Positions 11,096-63,617 of a stretch of 64,000 bases of DNA are shown piece by piece. The stretch lies in NCBI GenBank assembly GCA_902774325.1, contig CACYIC010000001.1:15403-79402 (forward strand). The letters are read 5' to 3'. A program made the position numbers and the translations under genes. The stretch is from an uncultured Ruminococcus sp. (lineage in GTDB: Bacteria; Bacillota; Clostridia; Oscillospirales; Acutalibacteraceae). The notes under the pieces are model-generated. The model saw only the letters and a program-made list of their open reading frames with translations. It searched no databases and was not told where the DNA came from. Position 1 is the stretch's first letter. The number at the start of each line of letters is the position of its first letter.

Positions 11096-11140
11096 AAATA
11101 ATTTATTTTTTGAAATCACAACGTTTTGGATGATGGCGAT

Positions 11141-11197
11141 GCTTTTTGTTCGGACATCATAAGGCAGCGGACAGAACGATTTTTGACCCGCCGTCGC
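11141..11197. repeat. Decayed solo copy of the 110-bp tandem-array unit
   Basis: Ungapped 41/57 match to the array core at about 35398-35454, including an exact 17-mer TTTTGACCCGCCGTCGC. Confidence 0.65.
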
Positions 11198-33005: not shown

Positions 33006-34304
33006 ATGGCTGAGTTAAAATACGACAAAAAAACAGGCAGGCTGCTGTTTACAAAGCAGATGAAGAAGGATTACACCATCCTGATCCCGAACATGGCGCC
33101 GATCCACTTTCAGATGCTCGAGAACGTCTTTAAGCATTACGGCTACAAGGCGGAGCTGCTGCGCTTCACGGGACCCGAGATCGCCCAGACGGGACTTAAA
33201 TACGTTCACAACGATACCTGCTATCCCGCGCTCCTGGTTATAGGTCAGTTTATCTACGCGCTCCAGAGCGGCAAATACGACCCGCACAAGACCGCGCTGA
33301 TGATCACCCAGACGGGCGGAGGCTGCCGCGCCTCGAACTATATTTTCCTGCTGCGCAAGGCTCTCAAAAAGGCGGGCTATCCCTTTGTTCCCGTAATCTC
33401 GCTCTCCTTCGGGATGGAAAAGAACCCCGGCTTCGCCCTCACCATCTCGCTGGTGCGCCGCTTTGTGGGCGGCGTGGTCTACGGCGACCAGCTCATGCTG
33501 CTCTCAAACCAGATCAAGCCCTACGAGGTCAACAAGGGAGAAACGATGGCGCTTGTAGACAAGTGGGTCCAAAAGCTCTCGGATATGCTCGTAGCCGGAA
33601 AGGGCTACACGCTCGAGGAGATCGACGAGAACCTTCACAAGCTGACAAAGGATTTCTCGAAAATCGAGGTCGACCGCACGCCTAAGATCAAGGTCGGCAT
33701 CGTCGGCGAGATATATGTAAAATACTCCGAAATGGCAAATAACGGACTCGAGAAATTCCTCGCGGAGCAGGATTGCGAGGTCTGTATTCCGGGACTTATG
33801 GGTTTTGCCGCCTTCAAGGTGGACAACCGCATAGAGGATTACAAGATGTTCGGCGGAAACAGGATCAAATACGAATTCTGCAAAATGCTGCTCGATTACG
33901 TCACCAAGCTGGAGACCATAATGGTCGAGAGCGCCAAGCGCTTCAACTTCGTCCCGCCGCAGCAATATTCCCATACAAAGGAGCTCGTAAAGGGCGTCAT
34001 CGGCTACGGAAGCAAGATGGGCGAGGGCTGGCTGCTCACAGCCGAGATGATCGAGCTTGCCGATATGGGCTATGAAAATATCATTTGCACTCAGCCCTTC
34101 GGCTGTCTGCCAAACCATATAAACGGAAAGGGCGCGATCCGCAAGATCAAGGAGATCCGTCCCAACGCCAATATCGTCACTATCGACTACGACCCCGGCG
34201 CTCCCAAGGTCAATCAGGAGAACCGCATAAAGCTCATGCTGGCGGTCGGCAGAGAAGAACTGGAGAAGAAGCTCAAGGAAAATGAAGAAGAATCCCGGAA
34301 ATAA
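33006..34304 (+). CDS. 2-hydroxyacyl-CoA dehydratase-like protein
   Basis: NDTCYPA, TQTGGGCRASNY, VGEIYVK, GEGWLL, QPFGCLPNH. Confidence 0.85.
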   Translation: MAELKYDKKTGRLLFTKQMKKDYTILIPNMAPIHFQMLENVFKHYGYKAELLRFTGPEIAQTGLKYVHNDTCYPALLVIGQFIYALQSGKYDPHKTALMITQTGGGCRASNYIFLLRKALKKAGYPFVPVISLSFGMEKNPGFALTISLVRRFVGGVVYGDQLMLLSNQIKPYEVNKGETMALVDKWVQKLSDMLVAGKGYTLEEIDENLHKLTKDFSKIEVDRTPKIKVGIVGEIYVKYSEMANNGLEKFLAEQDCEVCIPGLMGFAAFKVDNRIEDYKMFGGNRIKYEFCKMLLDYVTKLETIMVESAKRFNFVPPQQYSHTKELVKGVIGYGSKMGEGWLLTAEMIELADMGYENIICTQPFGCLPNHINGKGAIRKIKEIRPNANIVTIDYDPGAPKVNQENRIKLMLAVGREELEKKLKENEEESRK

Positions 34305-35118
34305 CGGTATCAGGCAAAAGCTTTTGAAGGCGGTCAATTTCGAGGATATGCGCAGGCACAAGGTAAAGGCGGCGGTATATATCGTGATCCGCGTCCTTAC
34401 CGTCGGAGTGATGGTGTTCAGCATAGTCAGAGGCAACTGGGAAAATACTATGACCTGCGCCTTGACGCTGTTCCTGTTTTTGATCCCCTCGTTTATCAAC
34501 AACAGGATGAAGATCGAGCTGCCGAGCGTGCTGGAGATCATAATGATAGTCTTTGTGTTCTCGGCGAATATCATGGGCGAGATATCCTCGTTCTATGAAA
34601 AATTCCCCTATTGGGACGCCGTGCTCCATACCCTCAACGGTTTTATCTGCGCGGGCGTGGGCTTTGGGCTCGTCGACATCCTCAATCGCGAAAAGGCGGT
34701 GAGGGTCACGCTCTCGCCCGTTTTCGTCTGCCTGTTTTCCTTCTGCTTCTCCATGACCGCGGGCACCGTTTGGGAGTTCTTTGAGTTCGGCATGGATATG
34801 CTTTTCGGCAAGGATATGCAGAAGGACGCGGTCGTAGGCTTCATCAATTCCACGCTGCTCGCCGAGGGAGGCGAAAAGATCCACCGCGTCAGGGATATTT
34901 CGCAAACCGTCGTCAACGGCGCCGAGCTGAATATCAACGGCTACCTCGATATCGGTCTGATCGACACGATGAAGGATCTGATCGTCAATTTCATCGGCGC
35001 GGTGGTGTTCAATACCGTGGGGTATTTTTATCTGCTCGGCAGAGGAAGACACACCGGCTTTATCAAAAACTTTATTCCAACCAAAATCCCGGAGAATGAA
35101 AAAAACGCTCAGCCTTGA
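34282..35118 (+). CDS. Conserved integral membrane protein
   Basis: YWDAVLHTLNGF, WEFFEF, DTMKDLIVNFIG; multiple TMs; overlaps the preceding stop. Confidence 0.75.
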   Translation: MKKNPGNNGIRQKLLKAVNFEDMRRHKVKAAVYIVIRVLTVGVMVFSIVRGNWENTMTCALTLFLFLIPSFINNRMKIELPSVLEIIMIVFVFSANIMGEISSFYEKFPYWDAVLHTLNGFICAGVGFGLVDILNREKAVRVTLSPVFVCLFSFCFSMTAGTVWEFFEFGMDMLFGKDMQKDAVVGFINSTLLAEGGEKIHRVRDISQTVVNGAELNINGYLDIGLIDTMKDLIVNFIGAVVFNTVGYFYLLGRGRHTGFIKNFIPTKIPENEKNAQP

Positions 35119-35216
35119 AGCCGAGCGTTTTATTTTTTTATGAAGGAAATCACAGCGTTACGCATAGCGGAAATACCTCTTATACAGGAAGTAATGACGC
35201 AGCGCAAAGAAGAAGG

Positions 35217-35730
35217 ACTTCTGACCCGCCGTCGCAGGGGTTTGCGGCTCAACTCAACCTCAATAAAGAGGATAATGCGCTTTTGGCGCTTTTTGCTGGA
35301 ATTAAAAGAGGCGACGCATAAATCAACTTCTGACCCGCCGTCGCAGATGGTCTGCGGTTTATCACAACTTTTAAAAAGGCGGCTGGAGCGCCTTTGGCGC
35401 TTTTTGTGGGAATTAAAAGAGGCGGCGCATAAATCAACTTTTGACCCGCCGTCGCAGGGGGTCTGCGGCTCAACTCAACCTCAAAAAAGAGGATAATGCG
35501 CCCTTGGAGCTTTTTGTGGGAATTAAAAGAGGCGGCGCATAAATCAACTTCTGACCCGCCGTCGCAGGGGTTTGCGGTTCAACTCAACCTCAAAAAAGAG
35601 GATAATGCGCCCTTGGAGCTTTTTGTGAGAATTAAAAGAGGCGACGCATAAATCGACTTCTGACCCGCCGTCGCAGAAGGTCTGCGGTTTATCACAACTT
35701 TTAAAAAGGCGGAGAAAGCGCCTTTGGCGC
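35217..35730. repeat. Tandem array of about 4.7 copies of a 109-111-bp unit, two unit types in order A-B-A-A-B
   Basis: ACTT(C/T)TGACCCGCCGTCGCAG at 35217, 35326, 35437, 35547 and 35656. Confidence 0.95.
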
Positions 35731-35731
35731 A

Positions 35732-37153
35732 TCAGGCGAGGTGCAGAACGTTTATCAGCAGCACCCAGCTCAGTCCGTAGTAGGTGACGACCGCGACGAG
35801 GTCGTTGATCGTGGTGATCAGGGGACCCGAGGCTACGGCGGGGTCGATTTTTATTTTTTTGAAAAACAGCGGGATGGTGGTGCCGACTACGCTCGATATC
35901 ACCATGGCTGTCAGCAGCGACGCTCCGATGCAGCCCGAGACGGCGAAGGCGAAGAAGAAATCCCGTCCTCTGAAAAGCATGATATAAAGTCCCAGAAAGA
36001 CAACCGAAAGCGTGCCGAGGATCAGACCGTTGAAGAAGCCGACCCGCGATTCCTTCGCTACGAGTCTGAATTTTTGCGCGGCGGTGAGGTTTTCATCCAT
36101 CAGGACGCGGATGGTGACCGCCAGCGACTGCGTTCCGACGTTACCCGACATATCGAGGATGAGCGACTGGAACGCCATGATGAGCGTGAGCTGCTCGACG
36201 ACCCTCTCGAACGCGCCGACGACGGTGGAAACCAGTATGCCCAGACCCAGCAGCGCCAGAAGCCAGGGCATGCGCTTTTTTATGCTTTGGAGCAGCGGCT
36301 CCTTCAAGTCCTCCTCGGCGGTAAGACCGGCGAACATCGCGTAGTCCTCGCCGAGCTCTTCATCAACGACCTCGATTATGTTCTGCGCCGTGATGACTCC
36401 GAGAAAGGTATTGCTGTTGTCGAGCACGGGCACGGAGTCCTCCGAATAGTCCTTTAGCTTTTCGATACAATCGTCGATGCTCTCGTGACCGTAGACGTAC
36501 GGGAACGAGGTCGCGATCAGGTTCTCGAGCGGCTCCTCGGGCTTTGCCGTGAGCAGGTCGCGCAGATCGACGGCTCCGTAAAAGGCGCCGCTGTCGTCAA
36601 CGACGAAAAGCGTGTTGAGGTTATCGTTTTCCCTTGCCTGCCTTACAAGCTCGGCGGTAGCCTCTCTTACCGTGAGGTTTTCGCGCAGCACGATGCAGTT
36701 TGTCGTCAGGCGGCTGCCGATCTCGTCCTCGTCAAAGGCGGCGATTATCCTCAGATCGCTGCGCGCCTCGGGATCGAGCTCGTCGATGATGACCGTGCGC
36801 TTTTCGCGTGAGATCTCGCGGAGAATATCAGCCGCGGTGTCGGTCTCGAGCATCGAGATCACTGCAGCTTCTTTTTTAAGATCCATCTCGTCGAGGTAGC
36901 CTACTGCTTCCTTCTCGTCAAGGTGCTCGAACGCCTCGGCGAGCATTTCGACCGTGCATATCCTGTAGAGCTTCTTGCGCTCCGCGACGCTCAGCCCTTC
37001 CATAGTCTGGGCGAGGTCGCTGCCGTGGTAATCCTCGAGCAGCTTCTGCGCCGCCTTGGGGGAGCGGTTGCTTTTGATGATGCCCAGTATCTCGCTTTCG
37101 TAGTCGGGCCTTTCGATTACTTCATTCCCGACCATGGCTTTGTTGTTTTCCAT
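35732..37153 (-). CDS. mgtE: Magnesium transporter MgtE
   Basis: N-terminal repeats, CBS pair, MSGNVGTQS, DPAVASGPLITTINDL. Confidence 0.95.
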   Translation of the reverse strand: MENNKAMVGNEVIERPDYESEILGIIKSNRSPKAAQKLLEDYHGSDLAQTMEGLSVAERKKLYRICTVEMLAEAFEHLDEKEAVGYLDEMDLKKEAAVISMLETDTAADILREISREKRTVIIDELDPEARSDLRIIAAFDEDEIGSRLTTNCIVLRENLTVREATAELVRQARENDNLNTLFVVDDSGAFYGAVDLRDLLTAKPEEPLENLIATSFPYVYGHESIDDCIEKLKDYSEDSVPVLDNSNTFLGVITAQNIIEVVDEELGEDYAMFAGLTAEEDLKEPLLQSIKKRMPWLLALLGLGILVSTVVGAFERVVEQLTLIMAFQSLILDMSGNVGTQSLAVTIRVLMDENLTAAQKFRLVAKESRVGFFNGLILGTLSVVFLGLYIMLFRGRDFFFAFAVSGCIGASLLTAMVISSVVGTTIPLFFKKIKIDPAVASGPLITTINDLVAVVTYYGLSWVLLINVLHLA

Positions 37154-48974: not shown

Positions 48975-50282
48975 GTGAAACGCGTATCGGTAATAGCTTT
49001 ATTTGTCATAATGGTTTGTCTCAGCGTTTTTCCCGCCTCGGCGGTGGATTATATGTTTGACGCGGAGACCGTATCGAAATCTGTATATCTGGAGAGCCTC
49101 AGCGCCAAGACTGTCGTTTATGAGAAGGACGCCGACCGGCGGAGCTATCCCGCTTCTACCACAAAGATCATGACTTACATCATAACTGCGGAGAATGTTT
49201 CCGATTTTGATCAAACCGCCGTCACCATAAGGCAGGATGCGATCGAGGGACTTGACCCGGAAAGCACGGTCATGGGCTTGTCGTCGCATATCGGCGAGCA
49301 GGTCTCTGTCAGGGATCTGCTGTACGGTCTTATGCTCCCGTCCGGCAATGACGCGGCGCTGGTGCTGGCGGATTATGTCGGCGGAAGTATCCCGGAATTT
49401 GTGTCGAAGATGAACGCCAAAGCCGCGGAGCTTGGCTGCACTAACACGCATTTTGTCAATCCCCACGGGCTTTTTGACTCCGAGCACTATACTACCGCCC
49501 GTGATATGGCTCAAATCGCCAAGTACGCCATGACGCTCCCCGGCTTCATGGAGATATGCAATACGGTCTATTATACGCCTGACGGCTTCGACACCCTGCA
49601 CAACACCAATTATATGCTTGACGAGTACGCGGAGGACGGCGCGTACTACTACCCTTATACCAGGGGCATCAAGACCGGATATCTTGACGAGGCGGGCAAG
49701 TGCCTGGTGACCTCCTCCGATAAGGAAGGCGATCAGTATATCTGCGTGTGCCTCGGAGCGGATTATTCGTTCTCGGAAAACATCAACTACGCGATGAAGG
49801 ACACCGCGAAGCTCTATGACTGGGCGTATGAGAATTTGGGCGTGCAGACGATCTACAGCCCTTCGGACAGCCTTGCTTCCGTGGATGTTAAGTATGTCCG
49901 GGAAGGAAAGACGCTGAGCGCGGTCCCCGAAAAGGAGATCACAGCCTTTCTTCCGAAGCAATACGATAAAAACCGCTTGGATACCCGAATCAGCTGCCCC
50001 GATCAGGTCGAGGCGCCCGTTAAAAAGGGAGATGTTCTCGGAACGGTCAGCGTTCGGTATGAGGATCTGGAGCTGGGTACGGTCAACCTTGTCGCCACCG
50101 AGGATGTCGAGCGCAACGTCTCGCACTTGAGGGCGTTCGTCCAGGAGCATACCAAGCTGACTGTGATCTCAGCCGTGTCGCTGCTCCTGCTCATCATTTT
50201 TCTGATAGTTCTGATCCGTATTAAGTCCGTCCGCAAGCGTCGCGGTAAGCGTCCGAGCAATGGCCGCAGATACAGAGATTGA
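48975..50282 (+). CDS. D-alanyl-D-alanine carboxypeptidase (peptidase S11) with C-terminal TM anchor
   Basis: PASTTKIMT (SxxK), LMLPSGNDAA (SxN), IKTG; terminator 50372-50402. Confidence 0.92.
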   Translation: MKRVSVIALFVIMVCLSVFPASAVDYMFDAETVSKSVYLESLSAKTVVYEKDADRRSYPASTTKIMTYIITAENVSDFDQTAVTIRQDAIEGLDPESTVMGLSSHIGEQVSVRDLLYGLMLPSGNDAALVLADYVGGSIPEFVSKMNAKAAELGCTNTHFVNPHGLFDSEHYTTARDMAQIAKYAMTLPGFMEICNTVYYTPDGFDTLHNTNYMLDEYAEDGAYYYPYTRGIKTGYLDEAGKCLVTSSDKEGDQYICVCLGADYSFSENINYAMKDTAKLYDWAYENLGVQTIYSPSDSLASVDVKYVREGKTLSAVPEKEITAFLPKQYDKNRLDTRISCPDQVEAPVKKGDVLGTVSVRYEDLELGTVNLVATEDVERNVSHLRAFVQEHTKLTVISAVSLLLLIIFLIVLIRIKSVRKRRGKRPSNGRRYRD

Positions 50283-50417
50283 TTCGATCATCGACGGAGA
50301 AAGCGCCCATCGGCGCGGCGCCGATTCGGAAATGCGTTGCCTTTCCGATCGGCAGTTTAGGATAATGACATGGGCGGCTTCCGAATAAGGAGCCGCTCTT
50401 TTGATTTGTATTATCTT

Positions 50418-56402: not shown

Positions 56403-56513
56403 TCGCTGACTTCTGAAATCCAATATCGCTTCAGGGCTGTCCGAAAGGGCAGCCCTTTTGCCGCGCACTTTTGCGCAGCGGAAAGATTTGTCCGCCGCTG
56501 AAAACAGGCGGAG

Positions 56514-56557
56514 TGCGCCCGCTTGAGCTTTAAGTTGCGCCCGCTTGAGCTTTAAGT
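56514..56557 (+). repeat. Perfect tandem duplication of a 22-bp unit directly upstream of a -35 box
   Basis: TGCGCCCGCTTGAGCTTTAAGT twice. Confidence 0.9.
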
Positions 56558-61571: not shown

Positions 61572-63473
61572 TTAACCGGCGTTTTCTCCGGAAAATTTCA
61601 GATATATAACGCCCATCGGCGGCAAAGAGAGCGAAACGCTCTGGTTGCAGCCGTGGATCTTTTCCTGCTGCGTTTGGATCAGGTGTCCGTTTGTGACTCC
61701 GGAGCCGCCGTAGCGCAGATCGTCGGAATTGAACACCTCGTCATAAACGCCCGACTGAGGCACGCCAATGGAGTAGTTCTCGTGGCTTTCGGGCTTGAAG
61801 TTGCAGACCGCGATGATCTCGCTCCCGCTTTCGTCGCTGCGCTTGAAGGCGATGACGGAATTGGTGTAGTCGTCGTGGTGGATCCAGTCGAAGCCCTTCC
61901 ATATCGAGTCGCGCTCATAAAACGCCGGCGTTTCCTTGTAGAACAGGTTCAGCTCACGGAAGAAAACCTGGAGCTGGGCGTGGTTCTTGCTGTCCAGCAT
62001 CTCCCAGTCAACGATTCCGTCAACGTCCCATTCCTCGATCTGTCCGATATCGGTGCCCATGAAGAAGAGCTTTTTGCCCGGGTGGGCGAACATATAGGTT
62101 ATGAACGCGCGCAGACCCGCCAGACGGTCGCCGCCGTTTCCGGGCATCTTGCTGAGCAGCGAGCCCTTGCCTATGCTCATTTCGTCGTGCGAAACGGGCA
62201 GGATGAAGTGCTCCGAGAAAGCGTAGAAGAAGCTGAAAGTCAGGTTGTCGTGATTGAAGGGTCTCCACTTGGGCTCGAGCGTCATATAGCGGAGCATATC
62301 GTTCATCCAGCCTCGGTTCCACTTGTAGTTGAAGCCCAGACCGCCCTCCTCGATGCCGTGGGTGAGCTTAGGCCAGGAGGTCGTTTCCTCGGCGATCATA
62401 AGCACCTCGGGATGATAGAGGTGGACCGCGGTGTTGAGCCGCTTGACGAAATCGATCCCCTCAAGGTTCTCCTTGCCGCCGAATTTGTTGGGCGTCCACT
62501 CGCCCTCGCTTTTGCCGTAATCGAGATAGAGCATGGACGACAGCGCGCCTATGCGGATGCCGTCGAGGTGGTACTTCTCGATCCAGAATACCGCGGAGGA
62601 AACCAGAAAGCTCACTACCTCGGGACGCTCGAAATTGAACAGGCAGGTGTCCCAGAGAGGCTGTTCCCCGAGGCGGGGATCCTCGTTTTCGTAAAGCGCC
62701 GTGCCGTCGAATTTGCTCAGCGCGAAGCTGTCCTTCGGGAAGTTGGAGGGAACCCAGTCCATAATGACGCCGATGCCGTTTTGGTGGAGCGTGTCGATCA
62801 GGAACATCAGATCCTCGGGAGTGCCGTAGCGCGAGGTCGCGGCAAAATAGCCCGTGGTCTGGAAGCCCCAGCTTCCGTCGTAGGGGTGCTCCATCAGAGG
62901 CATGAACTGGACGTGGGTGTAATTCATGTCGAGCAGATAGGCGGTCAGCTCATCCGCGAGCTGTCTGTAGCTGTAGTAGCCGCCGTCCTCGCCGCGCTTC
63001 CATGAGCCCGCGTGGACCTCATAGATATTCATGGGTGACTTGAGGCTGTCGGCGCTTCTGCGGCGCTCAATCCAATCGCCGTCCCCCCAGCTGTAGGAAT
63101 CAATATCAAAGACGCGCGAGGCGTTGTCGGGACGAAGCTCCGCAAAGAAGGCAAAGGGATCGGATTTCAGAAGCTTCTCGAACCAGGGGGTCTCGACGCA
63201 GTATTTGTAGGAATCGCCTGCCGCGACGCCCTCGATGAAAAGCTCCCAGATCCCGTTTTCTGCCCTGCGCATGAAGTGAGCGTTTTTGTTCCAGTTGTTG
63301 AAGCTGCCCGTGACCGAAACGCTCTGCGCGTTTGGCGCCCAGACCCGGAACATGACGCCGTCACTTCCGCCGCGGCTTTCAGGTCTCGCGCCGAAGAAGG
63401 TGAACGCCCTCGTGCCGTCGCCCGTGAAAAACAGCTCGCTCTGGCTTCGCTCATCGCTGAAACGGTAGTCCAT
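61572..63473 (-). CDS. glgB: 1,4-alpha-glucan branching enzyme
   Basis: FRVWAPNA, YEVHAGSW, GSWGFQ..GYFA, LDGIRIGA, AEETT, PVSHDE. Conserved positions read SN at the usual W.P.H and GIRIGA at the usual RVDA nucleophile, so activity should be checked. Confidence 0.9.
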   Translation of the reverse strand: MDYRFSDERSQSELFFTGDGTRAFTFFGARPESRGGSDGVMFRVWAPNAQSVSVTGSFNNWNKNAHFMRRAENGIWELFIEGVAAGDSYKYCVETPWFEKLLKSDPFAFFAELRPDNASRVFDIDSYSWGDGDWIERRRSADSLKSPMNIYEVHAGSWKRGEDGGYYSYRQLADELTAYLLDMNYTHVQFMPLMEHPYDGSWGFQTTGYFAATSRYGTPEDLMFLIDTLHQNGIGVIMDWVPSNFPKDSFALSKFDGTALYENEDPRLGEQPLWDTCLFNFERPEVVSFLVSSAVFWIEKYHLDGIRIGALSSMLYLDYGKSEGEWTPNKFGGKENLEGIDFVKRLNTAVHLYHPEVLMIAEETTSWPKLTHGIEEGGLGFNYKWNRGWMNDMLRYMTLEPKWRPFNHDNLTFSFFYAFSEHFILPVSHDEMSIGKGSLLSKMPGNGGDRLAGLRAFITYMFAHPGKKLFFMGTDIGQIEEWDVDGIVDWEMLDSKNHAQLQVFFRELNLFYKETPAFYERDSIWKGFDWIHHDDYTNSVIAFKRSDESGSEIIAVCNFKPESHENYSIGVPQSGVYDEVFNSDDLRYGGSGVTNGHLIQTQQEKIHGCNQSVSLSLPPMGVIYLKFSGENAG

Positions 63474-63617
63474 TTTATCCCTCCCTCGTTAAAAAGAGCA
63501 AAAAGCGCCGGTGGGCGCTCTCTCCCGCCCGTCTGAACCTGAACGTGTTCAACGGCGGGGTCAAGAGATCTCATTAAAGAAAACCCATAGCTGATAAAGA
63601 ATACTTTTATCTGATTT

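Follow-up and report, generated by a model that had tools for sequence, protein, structure and literature searches.

The tandem array described here lies in a 64,000-nucleotide stretch of DNA (the window) from an uncultured, Ruminococcus-like bacterium of the cattle rumen, whose assembly comprises 2.11 Mb in 74 contigs at 52.8% GC. It sits between two convergent genes, as an earlier note on this DNA had stated. The first is an open reading frame on the plus strand (34282-35118) that encodes 278 amino acids; the product matches no Pfam domain at E <= 0.001, and its stop codon falls inside the stem of its own terminator. That terminator (35102-35131) is strong, intrinsic and bidirectional, with an inverted repeat of 12-nt arms that our scan scores as 13 pairs plus a T-run, and it forms the left border of the repeat-bearing intergenic region. 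The second gene is mgtE (35732-37153, minus strand), with the Pfam domains MgtE_N, CBS and MgtE, which has no canonical terminator of its own. The array occupies the 3' region of both flanking genes, where the earlier note had placed it.

Tandem Repeats Finder reports a single array at 35217-35689 with a period of 109, 4.3 copies, 86% matches and a score of 700. A 31-nt core pattern occurs four times in the array with at most one mismatch, compared with 0.00 expected occurrences in shuffled sequences. Anchoring the unit starts on the invariant GACCCGCC places them at 35223, 35332, 35443, 35553 and 35662, with the spacings of 109, 111, 110 and 109 nt given in the earlier note, and all five units are direct, head-to-tail copies. 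The order A-B-A-A-B assigned to two unit types is also correct: modules are 90-95% identical among units 1, 3 and 4, 89% identical between units 2 and 5, and 72-75% identical between types A and B. Upstream of unit 1, and nowhere else in the array, lies a 5'-terminal module on the plus strand (35140-35222) composed of TATGAAGGAAATCACAGCGTTACGCATAGCGGAAATACC... and a degenerate 21-nt box. The internal units lack the 5' box, and what is repeated runs from the T-run behind one GC hairpin to the next GC hairpin. Because the sequences between the cores themselves repeat as types A and B, with no unique spacers, the locus is not a CRISPR, in line with the earlier assessment. A coding reading of the open reading frame 35140-35496 was rejected since the frame runs through units with a period of 109-111 nt, which is no steady multiple of three.

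Each unit is organized around two stems, termed P1 and P3 and defined below from other species. Type B units, all on the plus strand like the others, are canonical. In unit 2 (35332-35442), P1 pairs 35335-35339 with 35378-35382 around an inner CGCAGA/TCTGCG hairpin, and P3 (35388-35400) is followed by TTTTTG; the unit folds at -26.8 kcal/mol with both stems, is terminator-like in the scan and scores 102 bits with our covariance model, R1. Unit 5 (35662-35731), which lacks a linker, pairs 35665-35669 with 35708-35712 in P1, carries P3 at 35718-35730 and has the top R1 score in the window (107 bits). In type A units, the 3' strand of P1 has changed from GGCGG to AGAGG, and in units 3 and 4 the 3' strand of P3 has also changed from GGCGC to GGAGC. 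Unit 1 (35223-35331; 65 bits) has AGAGG at 35267-35271 and a terminator-like P3 at 35277-35289 followed by TTTTTG. Unit 3 (35443-35552; 84 bits) has AGAGG at 35488-35492 and a weakened GCGCC/GGAGC P3 at 35498-35510, while unit 4 (35553-35661; 83 bits), whose module is 95% identical to that of unit 3, has P3 at 35607-35619. With P1 destroyed and P3 weakened, type A is best described as a decayed derivative. The small hairpins listed in the earlier note are indeed present, as CGCAGA-nnn-TCTGCG in the B units and as a GCGCC-TTT-GGCGC hairpin ending at 35730. This last GC hairpin is separated by the single base 35731 from the mgtE stop codon (TCA on the plus strand, 35732-35734), so that the array does end 1 nt from the stop.

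The segment formed by units 1 and 2 matches that formed by units 4 and 5 at 92%, a higher-order repeat that, together with the 95% likeness of units 3 and 4, suggests that the array grew by re-duplication of both the A-B dimer and single units. The same likeness of units 3 and 4 could instead reflect misassembly of a true locus with one or two units, as could the fragmentation of this metagenome-assembled genome (MAG) into 74 contigs, with family copies at contig ends (C15:1-100, the end of C42 and C17:116). Against an artefact, all five units differ from one another, A and B by as much as their 72-75% identity implies, which argues against simple assembly duplication. Unique sequence borders the array on both sides within an 86-kb contig, and comparable arrays occur in independent assemblies of other species. 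We therefore consider an assembly artefact very improbable.

The array bears on how transcripts of both neighbours could end. Downstream of the mgtE stop, the first structure is P3 of unit 5 read on the minus strand, followed by UUUCUCCGCCUUUUU. This combination misses the criteria of the terminator scan, which finds no minus-strand terminator before 35131. With a non-canonical hairpin at unit 5 and the next terminator at 35131-35102, the mgtE 3' end would lie either at the unit 5 hairpin or about 600 nt further on, at the far side of the array; for the array's minus strand, folding gives z = -2.95. The mgtE of the closest relative (78% amino acid identity; L091:1500-1545) has an ordinary terminator, GACGGGCG-AGCG-CCCGTC-TTTTT, directly after its stop, where the source genome has the GC hairpin of unit 5, and no element. 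An empty-site comparison at mgtE is impossible because synteny is not conserved. Read on the plus strand, the first two units look like terminators in the scan, and units 3 and 4 keep the T5 tail after a stem that is weaker; transcription running on towards mgtE is predicted to meet several hairpin-plus-T5 sites. A scan restricted to the sigma70-like type found no promoter on either strand between 34950 and 35900. The possibility that each unit is a small-RNA gene, with a TTGTGG-N18-CATAAA promoter and a terminator, was rejected given the absence of a promoter in the scan and the random orientation of copies elsewhere; by eye, the TTGTGG/CATAAA hexamers lack the required -10 positions.

Conservation between species covers no more than about 67 nt of the unit: CCGCC-GTTG(C/A)(A/T)G, a variable stretch of about 25 nt, CAAA-GGCGG-AGAAA-GCGCC-CACC-GGCGC. 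This module forms a long imperfect hairpin (P1 CCGCC/GGCGG, TTG/CAA and a variable inner stem), followed by AGAAA and the 5-bp GC hairpin P3. The earlier note's division into core and linkers was sound as to the repetition and the two types, A and B, but cut out of register with the true family module. What it had called the core combines a species-specific linker with the 5' half of the family module, and its linkers A and B are the 3' half of that module, canonical in B and degenerate in A.

When 28 sequences from other species are aligned without gaps on defined anchors, P3 is 100% paired, and two of its positions switch from C-G to U-A in nine and four sequences with no unpaired intermediate; its covariation score exceeds those of all 500 shuffles and of all slid controls. 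Variants of the P3 stem include GCGCC/GGCGC, GTGCC/GGCAC, GCGTC/GACGC, GCACC/GGTGC, GACGC/GCGTC and GCAACG/CGTTGC. P1 is invariant in this alignment and so uninformative on covariation there, and rare compensated variants are found elsewhere (GCGCC/GGCGC in L013; CCCGCC/GGCGGG in L019 and in L089 of G002). A fixed-register inner helix, P2 (GAAAGG/CCTTTC), was dropped because it is 69% paired, no better than a slid control at -1; the inner region of each copy still folds into a stem that continues P1 through TTG/CAA. RNAalifold run on a plain MAFFT alignment returned almost no structure, and the anchor-based gapless alignment was required. Between species whose proteins are about 70% identical, P1, the junction nucleotides, the P3 loop (CACC) and P3 pairing are all conserved, leaving two hairpins and about 25 nucleotides invariant. 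Such conservation indicates that something selects for the hairpins, either a host function or a requirement for spread. Compared with shuffled sequences, entire units fold more stably on either strand (z of -2.1 and -2.0), and this equality makes folding energy silent on which strand matters and on whether DNA or RNA is the relevant form.

The array belongs to a dispersed family. The earlier note's reading depended on further genomic copies of the core, and these exist: BLAST with one unit yields 36 matches in the source genome, and R1, built from 28 paralogues, yields 37, with copies on at least 15 contigs. In the source genome, the copies are composite elements. Behind the upstream gene's own terminator and T-run, each begins with a 5' box (GTATGA..AATCACAACGTTCCG..GGCAATAC) and continues with a 21-nt box (TAAGGCGGCGGACAGAACGA) present one to five times, one to five cores and one to six copies of a 26-nt 3' hairpin module (AAAGGCGGATAAAGCGCCnnnGGCGC). 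The 5' box is restricted to the 5' end of the element; its AATCACAACGTTCCG..GGCAATAC form precedes about eight other copies in the source genome and is never found without a core 32-169 nt downstream. Sub-modules also build mini-arrays of their own, with five 21-nt boxes at C15:28240-28345 and six 26-nt modules at C4:32600-32900 (G000).

The window holds further copies outside the array. A truncated one on the plus strand (11118-11197; 31 bits) comprises the 5' box, a 21-nt box and GACCCGCCGTCGC, and is followed at once by the stop codon of a convergent gene. The copy at C20:29849 breaks off at the same point, after GACCCGCCGTCGC, which may be a preferred breakpoint. A short variant on the minus strand (63500-63592; 30 bits) places P3 and a T-run in the 5' leader of a 633-amino-acid gene, putative glgB (61572-63473), directly before the ribosome-binding site (RBS). 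Its GC hairpin, followed by TTTTTGCTCTTTTT, amounts to an intrinsic-terminator-like site directly ahead of the gene. Two weak model matches on the plus strand, 50254-50321 (17.7 bits) and 56466-56533 (12.6 bits), may be degenerate relics of the family or chance.

The family is confined to a narrow group of bacteria. Within the rumen Ruminococcus-like genus of the source organism, 25 of 61 species-level genomes carry it, with copy numbers across the genus of 0-45, and a search of 119 other genera in the same bacterial family found it in none. Copy numbers are 37 in the source genome, 30 in G046, 23 in G057, 18 each in G002 and G055, and 16 each in G050 and G073. All named genomes with the exact motif are rumen Ruminococcus or Ruminococcaceae, among them the complete genome of the cultured Ruminococcus sp. 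JE7B6, which has 18 copies. Searches of Rfam 15 returned no relevant match, either for the window array at E <= 5 or for canonical arrays of relatives at E <= 1, and the signature sequences appear in no paper in the searchable full-text literature. A phage or plasmid origin is unsupported, as known phages and plasmids contain no match.

Tandem growth is a habit of the family. Three other species carry arrays of bare cores with a 66-68-nt period and three to five units, all direct, in which there is no linker and P3 of one unit abuts CCGCC of the next. These bare-core arrays lie at L031:1159-1583 and 2595-2841 (five and three units), L052:2863-3160 (four), L060:1003-1300 (four) and L045:3050-3267 (three); another locus, L056, has three units of 107 nt. 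Separately, one species (RUG13966) shows head-to-head inverted cores, CAACGGCGGGTC-N14-GACCCGCCGTTG, at L034:7454-7615 and L060:~1003-1045, with a 14-nt spacer that is itself palindromic (GAACC-ACTGA-GGTTC).

Genomic context was scored with each array counted once per locus. In the source genome, 14 of 24 loci lie between convergent genes, compared with 198 of 976 intergenic regions overall (odds ratio 5.8, p = 3.8e-5), and in other species the figure is 19 of 44 scorable loci. Most copies stand after terminators or between convergent genes. In pneumococci, such enrichment between convergent genes has been reported for BOX and RUP and is most marked for SPRITE (PMC3049150). In co-directional regions of the source genome, the element is oriented with the genes at all eight loci (p = 0.008), whereas in other species nine loci are co-oriented and 11 anti-oriented; the bias hints at a strand-specific constraint in the source genome, and reflects either its composite subfamily or a small-sample effect. 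At six of the eight co-directional loci, a clear promoter of the downstream gene's own lies between element and gene. Three copies stand directly in 5' leaders with P3 and the T-run before the RBS, upstream of putative glgB (the 63500-63592 copy), a ThiF-like gene and an unknown gene, which share no common theme. The glgB leader copy is absent upstream of 16 orthologues of the 633-amino-acid gene.

These counts also bear on whether the ~67-nt module is a functional structured RNA, such as a multi-copy small-RNA locus, a protein-titrating RNA or a 5'-leader transcription attenuator. In the attenuator variant, a formed P1 would leave P3 free to terminate, and an open P1 would let its 3' strand GGCGG form an antiterminator with CGCC of P3. 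Compensatory changes in P3, the rare compensated P1 variants and the conserved junction nucleotides speak for such an RNA, and the uniform orientation in the source genome, the terminator-like P3 and T-run of units 1 and 2 and the three copies directly before an RBS and ATG point the same way. However, orientation is unbiased elsewhere (9 versus 11), both strands fold equally well, no sigma70-like promoter was found, and most copies follow terminators or lie between convergent genes. Furthermore, leader positions and almost all others differ from species to species, the flanking genes lack a theme, congeners range from 0 to 45 copies, and the inner stem is just 69% paired in a fixed register. 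A functional RNA of this kind is therefore unlikely.

Insertion sites are mostly species-specific. Downstream of mgtE, no convincing family member occurs in any of 10 orthologues from the genus (68-74% amino acid identity) or in any of the 13 closest metagenomic relatives (<=78%). A search of metagenomes for contigs of the same species found none, the best match having 78% amino acid identity. Of the copies compared in G002, 1 of 15 is at a syntenic site that also holds a copy in the source genome; at well-conserved genes flanking G002 copies (74-97% amino acid identity), the source genome has no copy. Arrays in other species sit beside housekeeping genes that are unrelated to one another, and no toxin, nuclease, recombinase or transposase recurs among these neighbours. 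Judged from its patchiness and these non-conserved sites, the family is probably mobile. A MITE would have terminal inverted repeats, a target-site duplication and a related autonomous element; here the P1 arms resemble short inverted termini, and no target duplication or empty site is definable where orthologous intergenic regions cannot be aligned.

The hairpins could be single-stranded DNA recognition sites for a hairpin-binding recombinase or transposase, in the manner of REP/RAYT, IS200/IS605 ends or attC, with both spread and tandem growth driven by the enzyme. Hairpin pairing under selection while the stem sequence changes would suit such a site, as would the energetic strand neutrality expected of a DNA palindrome, the patchy distribution at species-specific sites, the two truncated copies that break at the same point after GACCCGCCGTCGC and the head-to-head inverted cores of one species. 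No mobilising enzyme was found among the candidates examined. The link to a RAYT/IS200-like transposase suggested by the earlier note fails, as PF01797 (Y1/RAYT) has no match in the source genome or in six further repeat-rich ones (the complete G002, and G046, G057, G055, G050 and G073), and is present in 19 of 35 repeat-free genomes. A link to the GxxExxY nuclease (PF13366) was likewise rejected, since that domain occurs in 1 of 61 genomes of the genus and does not track the family. No recombinase or nuclease recurs beside arrays, there is no phage or plasmid match, and the order of GTT.../...AAC-like arms, read from the sequence, is the reverse of that in attC. Enzyme-driven spread through such sites is thus rather unlikely.

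Taken together, the array probably arose when one copy of a selfish, non-coding interspersed repeat, restricted to this genus and resembling BOX, SPRITE and REP, was amplified locally in tandem. In the proposed course of events, one composite element would have landed downstream of the upstream frame's terminator; an A-B dimer would have arisen and been re-amplified, by replication slippage or unequal recombination, into A-B-A-A-B; and the cluster would have expanded up to the mgtE stop, displacing the gene's own terminator. The element would have no dedicated cellular function, and its hairpins at mgtE would be incidental. Side effects may nevertheless follow on both strands. On the plus strand, the hairpin-plus-T5 sites of units 1-4 could stop residual read-through towards mgtE. 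On the minus strand, the unit 5 GC hairpin with its U-rich tract, and then the whole array, may provide a structured mgtE 3' end, with the bidirectional terminator at 35131-35102 as its outer limit. Across the family, copies collect at the least harmful places, behind genes and above all in convergent intergenic regions. Points against this reading are the conserved hairpins, which a host function could explain, the uniform co-orientation at the eight co-directional loci of the source genome, the three leader copies with a terminator-like P3 and the lack of a match to the candidate mobilising enzymes.

A more far-reaching interpretation is that a new trans-acting factor recognizes the 67-nt module, or that the module has a switchable terminator function. 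Such a factor could be a hairpin-specific DNA enzyme, not related to RAYT/IS200, that copies and reiterates the module, or it could act in RNA binding or termination. This interpretation is decidedly unlikely; if a trans-acting factor does exist, some copies, namely those before putative glgB and the ThiF-like gene and after mgtE, could be switchable terminators operating through P1/P3 competition. Under the preferred reading of a locally amplified interspersed repeat, the direct importance of the locus is small: BOX/REP/SPRITE-type elements gain one more, apparently undescribed family, confined to one genus of uncultured, Ruminococcus-like bacteria of the rumen. Its presence accounts for broken contigs in MAGs of this group and for spurious open reading frames such as 35140-35496, and it cautions against taking such arrays for regulatory RNAs or CRISPR-like loci. 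Should array length vary, the locus may also serve as a strain-typing marker. A puzzle is that two hairpins and invariant nucleotides are kept, yet the repeat-rich genomes examined contain no known hairpin-dependent transposase.

Several known systems share features with the family. A BIME/REP-like mosaic, as the earlier note had proposed, is right in the general sense of a hairpin-forming, mosaic extragenic repeat. Like REP, BIME and REPIN sequences, the family consists of extragenic imperfect palindromes in tens of copies, arranged with linkers in mosaic clusters at 3' ends, and may serve transcripts as 3' hairpins or attenuators. However, REP-type repeats are palindromes of 20-40 nt with a GTAG-type head in alternating orientation, whereas the Ruminococcus unit is about 67 nt long, has two hairpins and no GTAG head, and is repeated directly. 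Unlike the REP/BIME repeats of proteobacteria, which are associated with RAYT transposases, it occurs in a source genome and other repeat-rich genomes that contain no RAYT gene. NsiR1 of Nostoc/Anabaena is a tandem small-RNA array at one conserved locus, with a regulated promoter for each unit. Its head-to-tail units of ~100 nt, each ending in a terminator-like hairpin, are like those described here, but the Ruminococcus unit has no detected promoter and is dispersed at about 25 loci that differ between species. A type III toxin-antitoxin RNA array, with tandem RNA repeats directly before a toxin gene of the same orientation, was rejected: the array faces the 3' end of mgtE, and in relatives the neighbours of arrays are housekeeping genes without a common theme.

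BOX elements of Streptococcus pneumoniae have the structure boxA-boxB(n)-boxC, and BOX-type repeats also occur in S. suis (PMC3049150). The likeness to BOX is one of build, not homology: both are non-coding, modular and intergenic, with distinct terminal modules and internal modules in variable tandem number, and both have predicted stem-loops, are enriched between convergent genes and are limited to a narrow group of related species. Unlike BOX, to which it has no sequence relationship, the Ruminococcus repeat reiterates whole units rather than just an internal module and carries a separate short GC hairpin, and no IS-like inverted termini were found in it, the candidate enzyme families checked being Y1 and PF13366. 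SPRITE elements are similarly dispersed, with a hairpin that sometimes has a U-rich tract; they favour gene 3' ends and convergent gene pairs most strongly of all and may be recruited as terminators (PMC3049150). SPRITE has one 18-bp duplex and a long U tract, whereas here a T-run follows P3 in the window array and a few copies and is absent from most copies in other species; tandem arrays are no described feature of SPRITE. The family is apparently undescribed and works like BOX, SPRITE and REP while being a member of none, and its nearer analogues than REP/BIME are the modular BOX and terminator-like SPRITE elements of pneumococci (PMC3049150).
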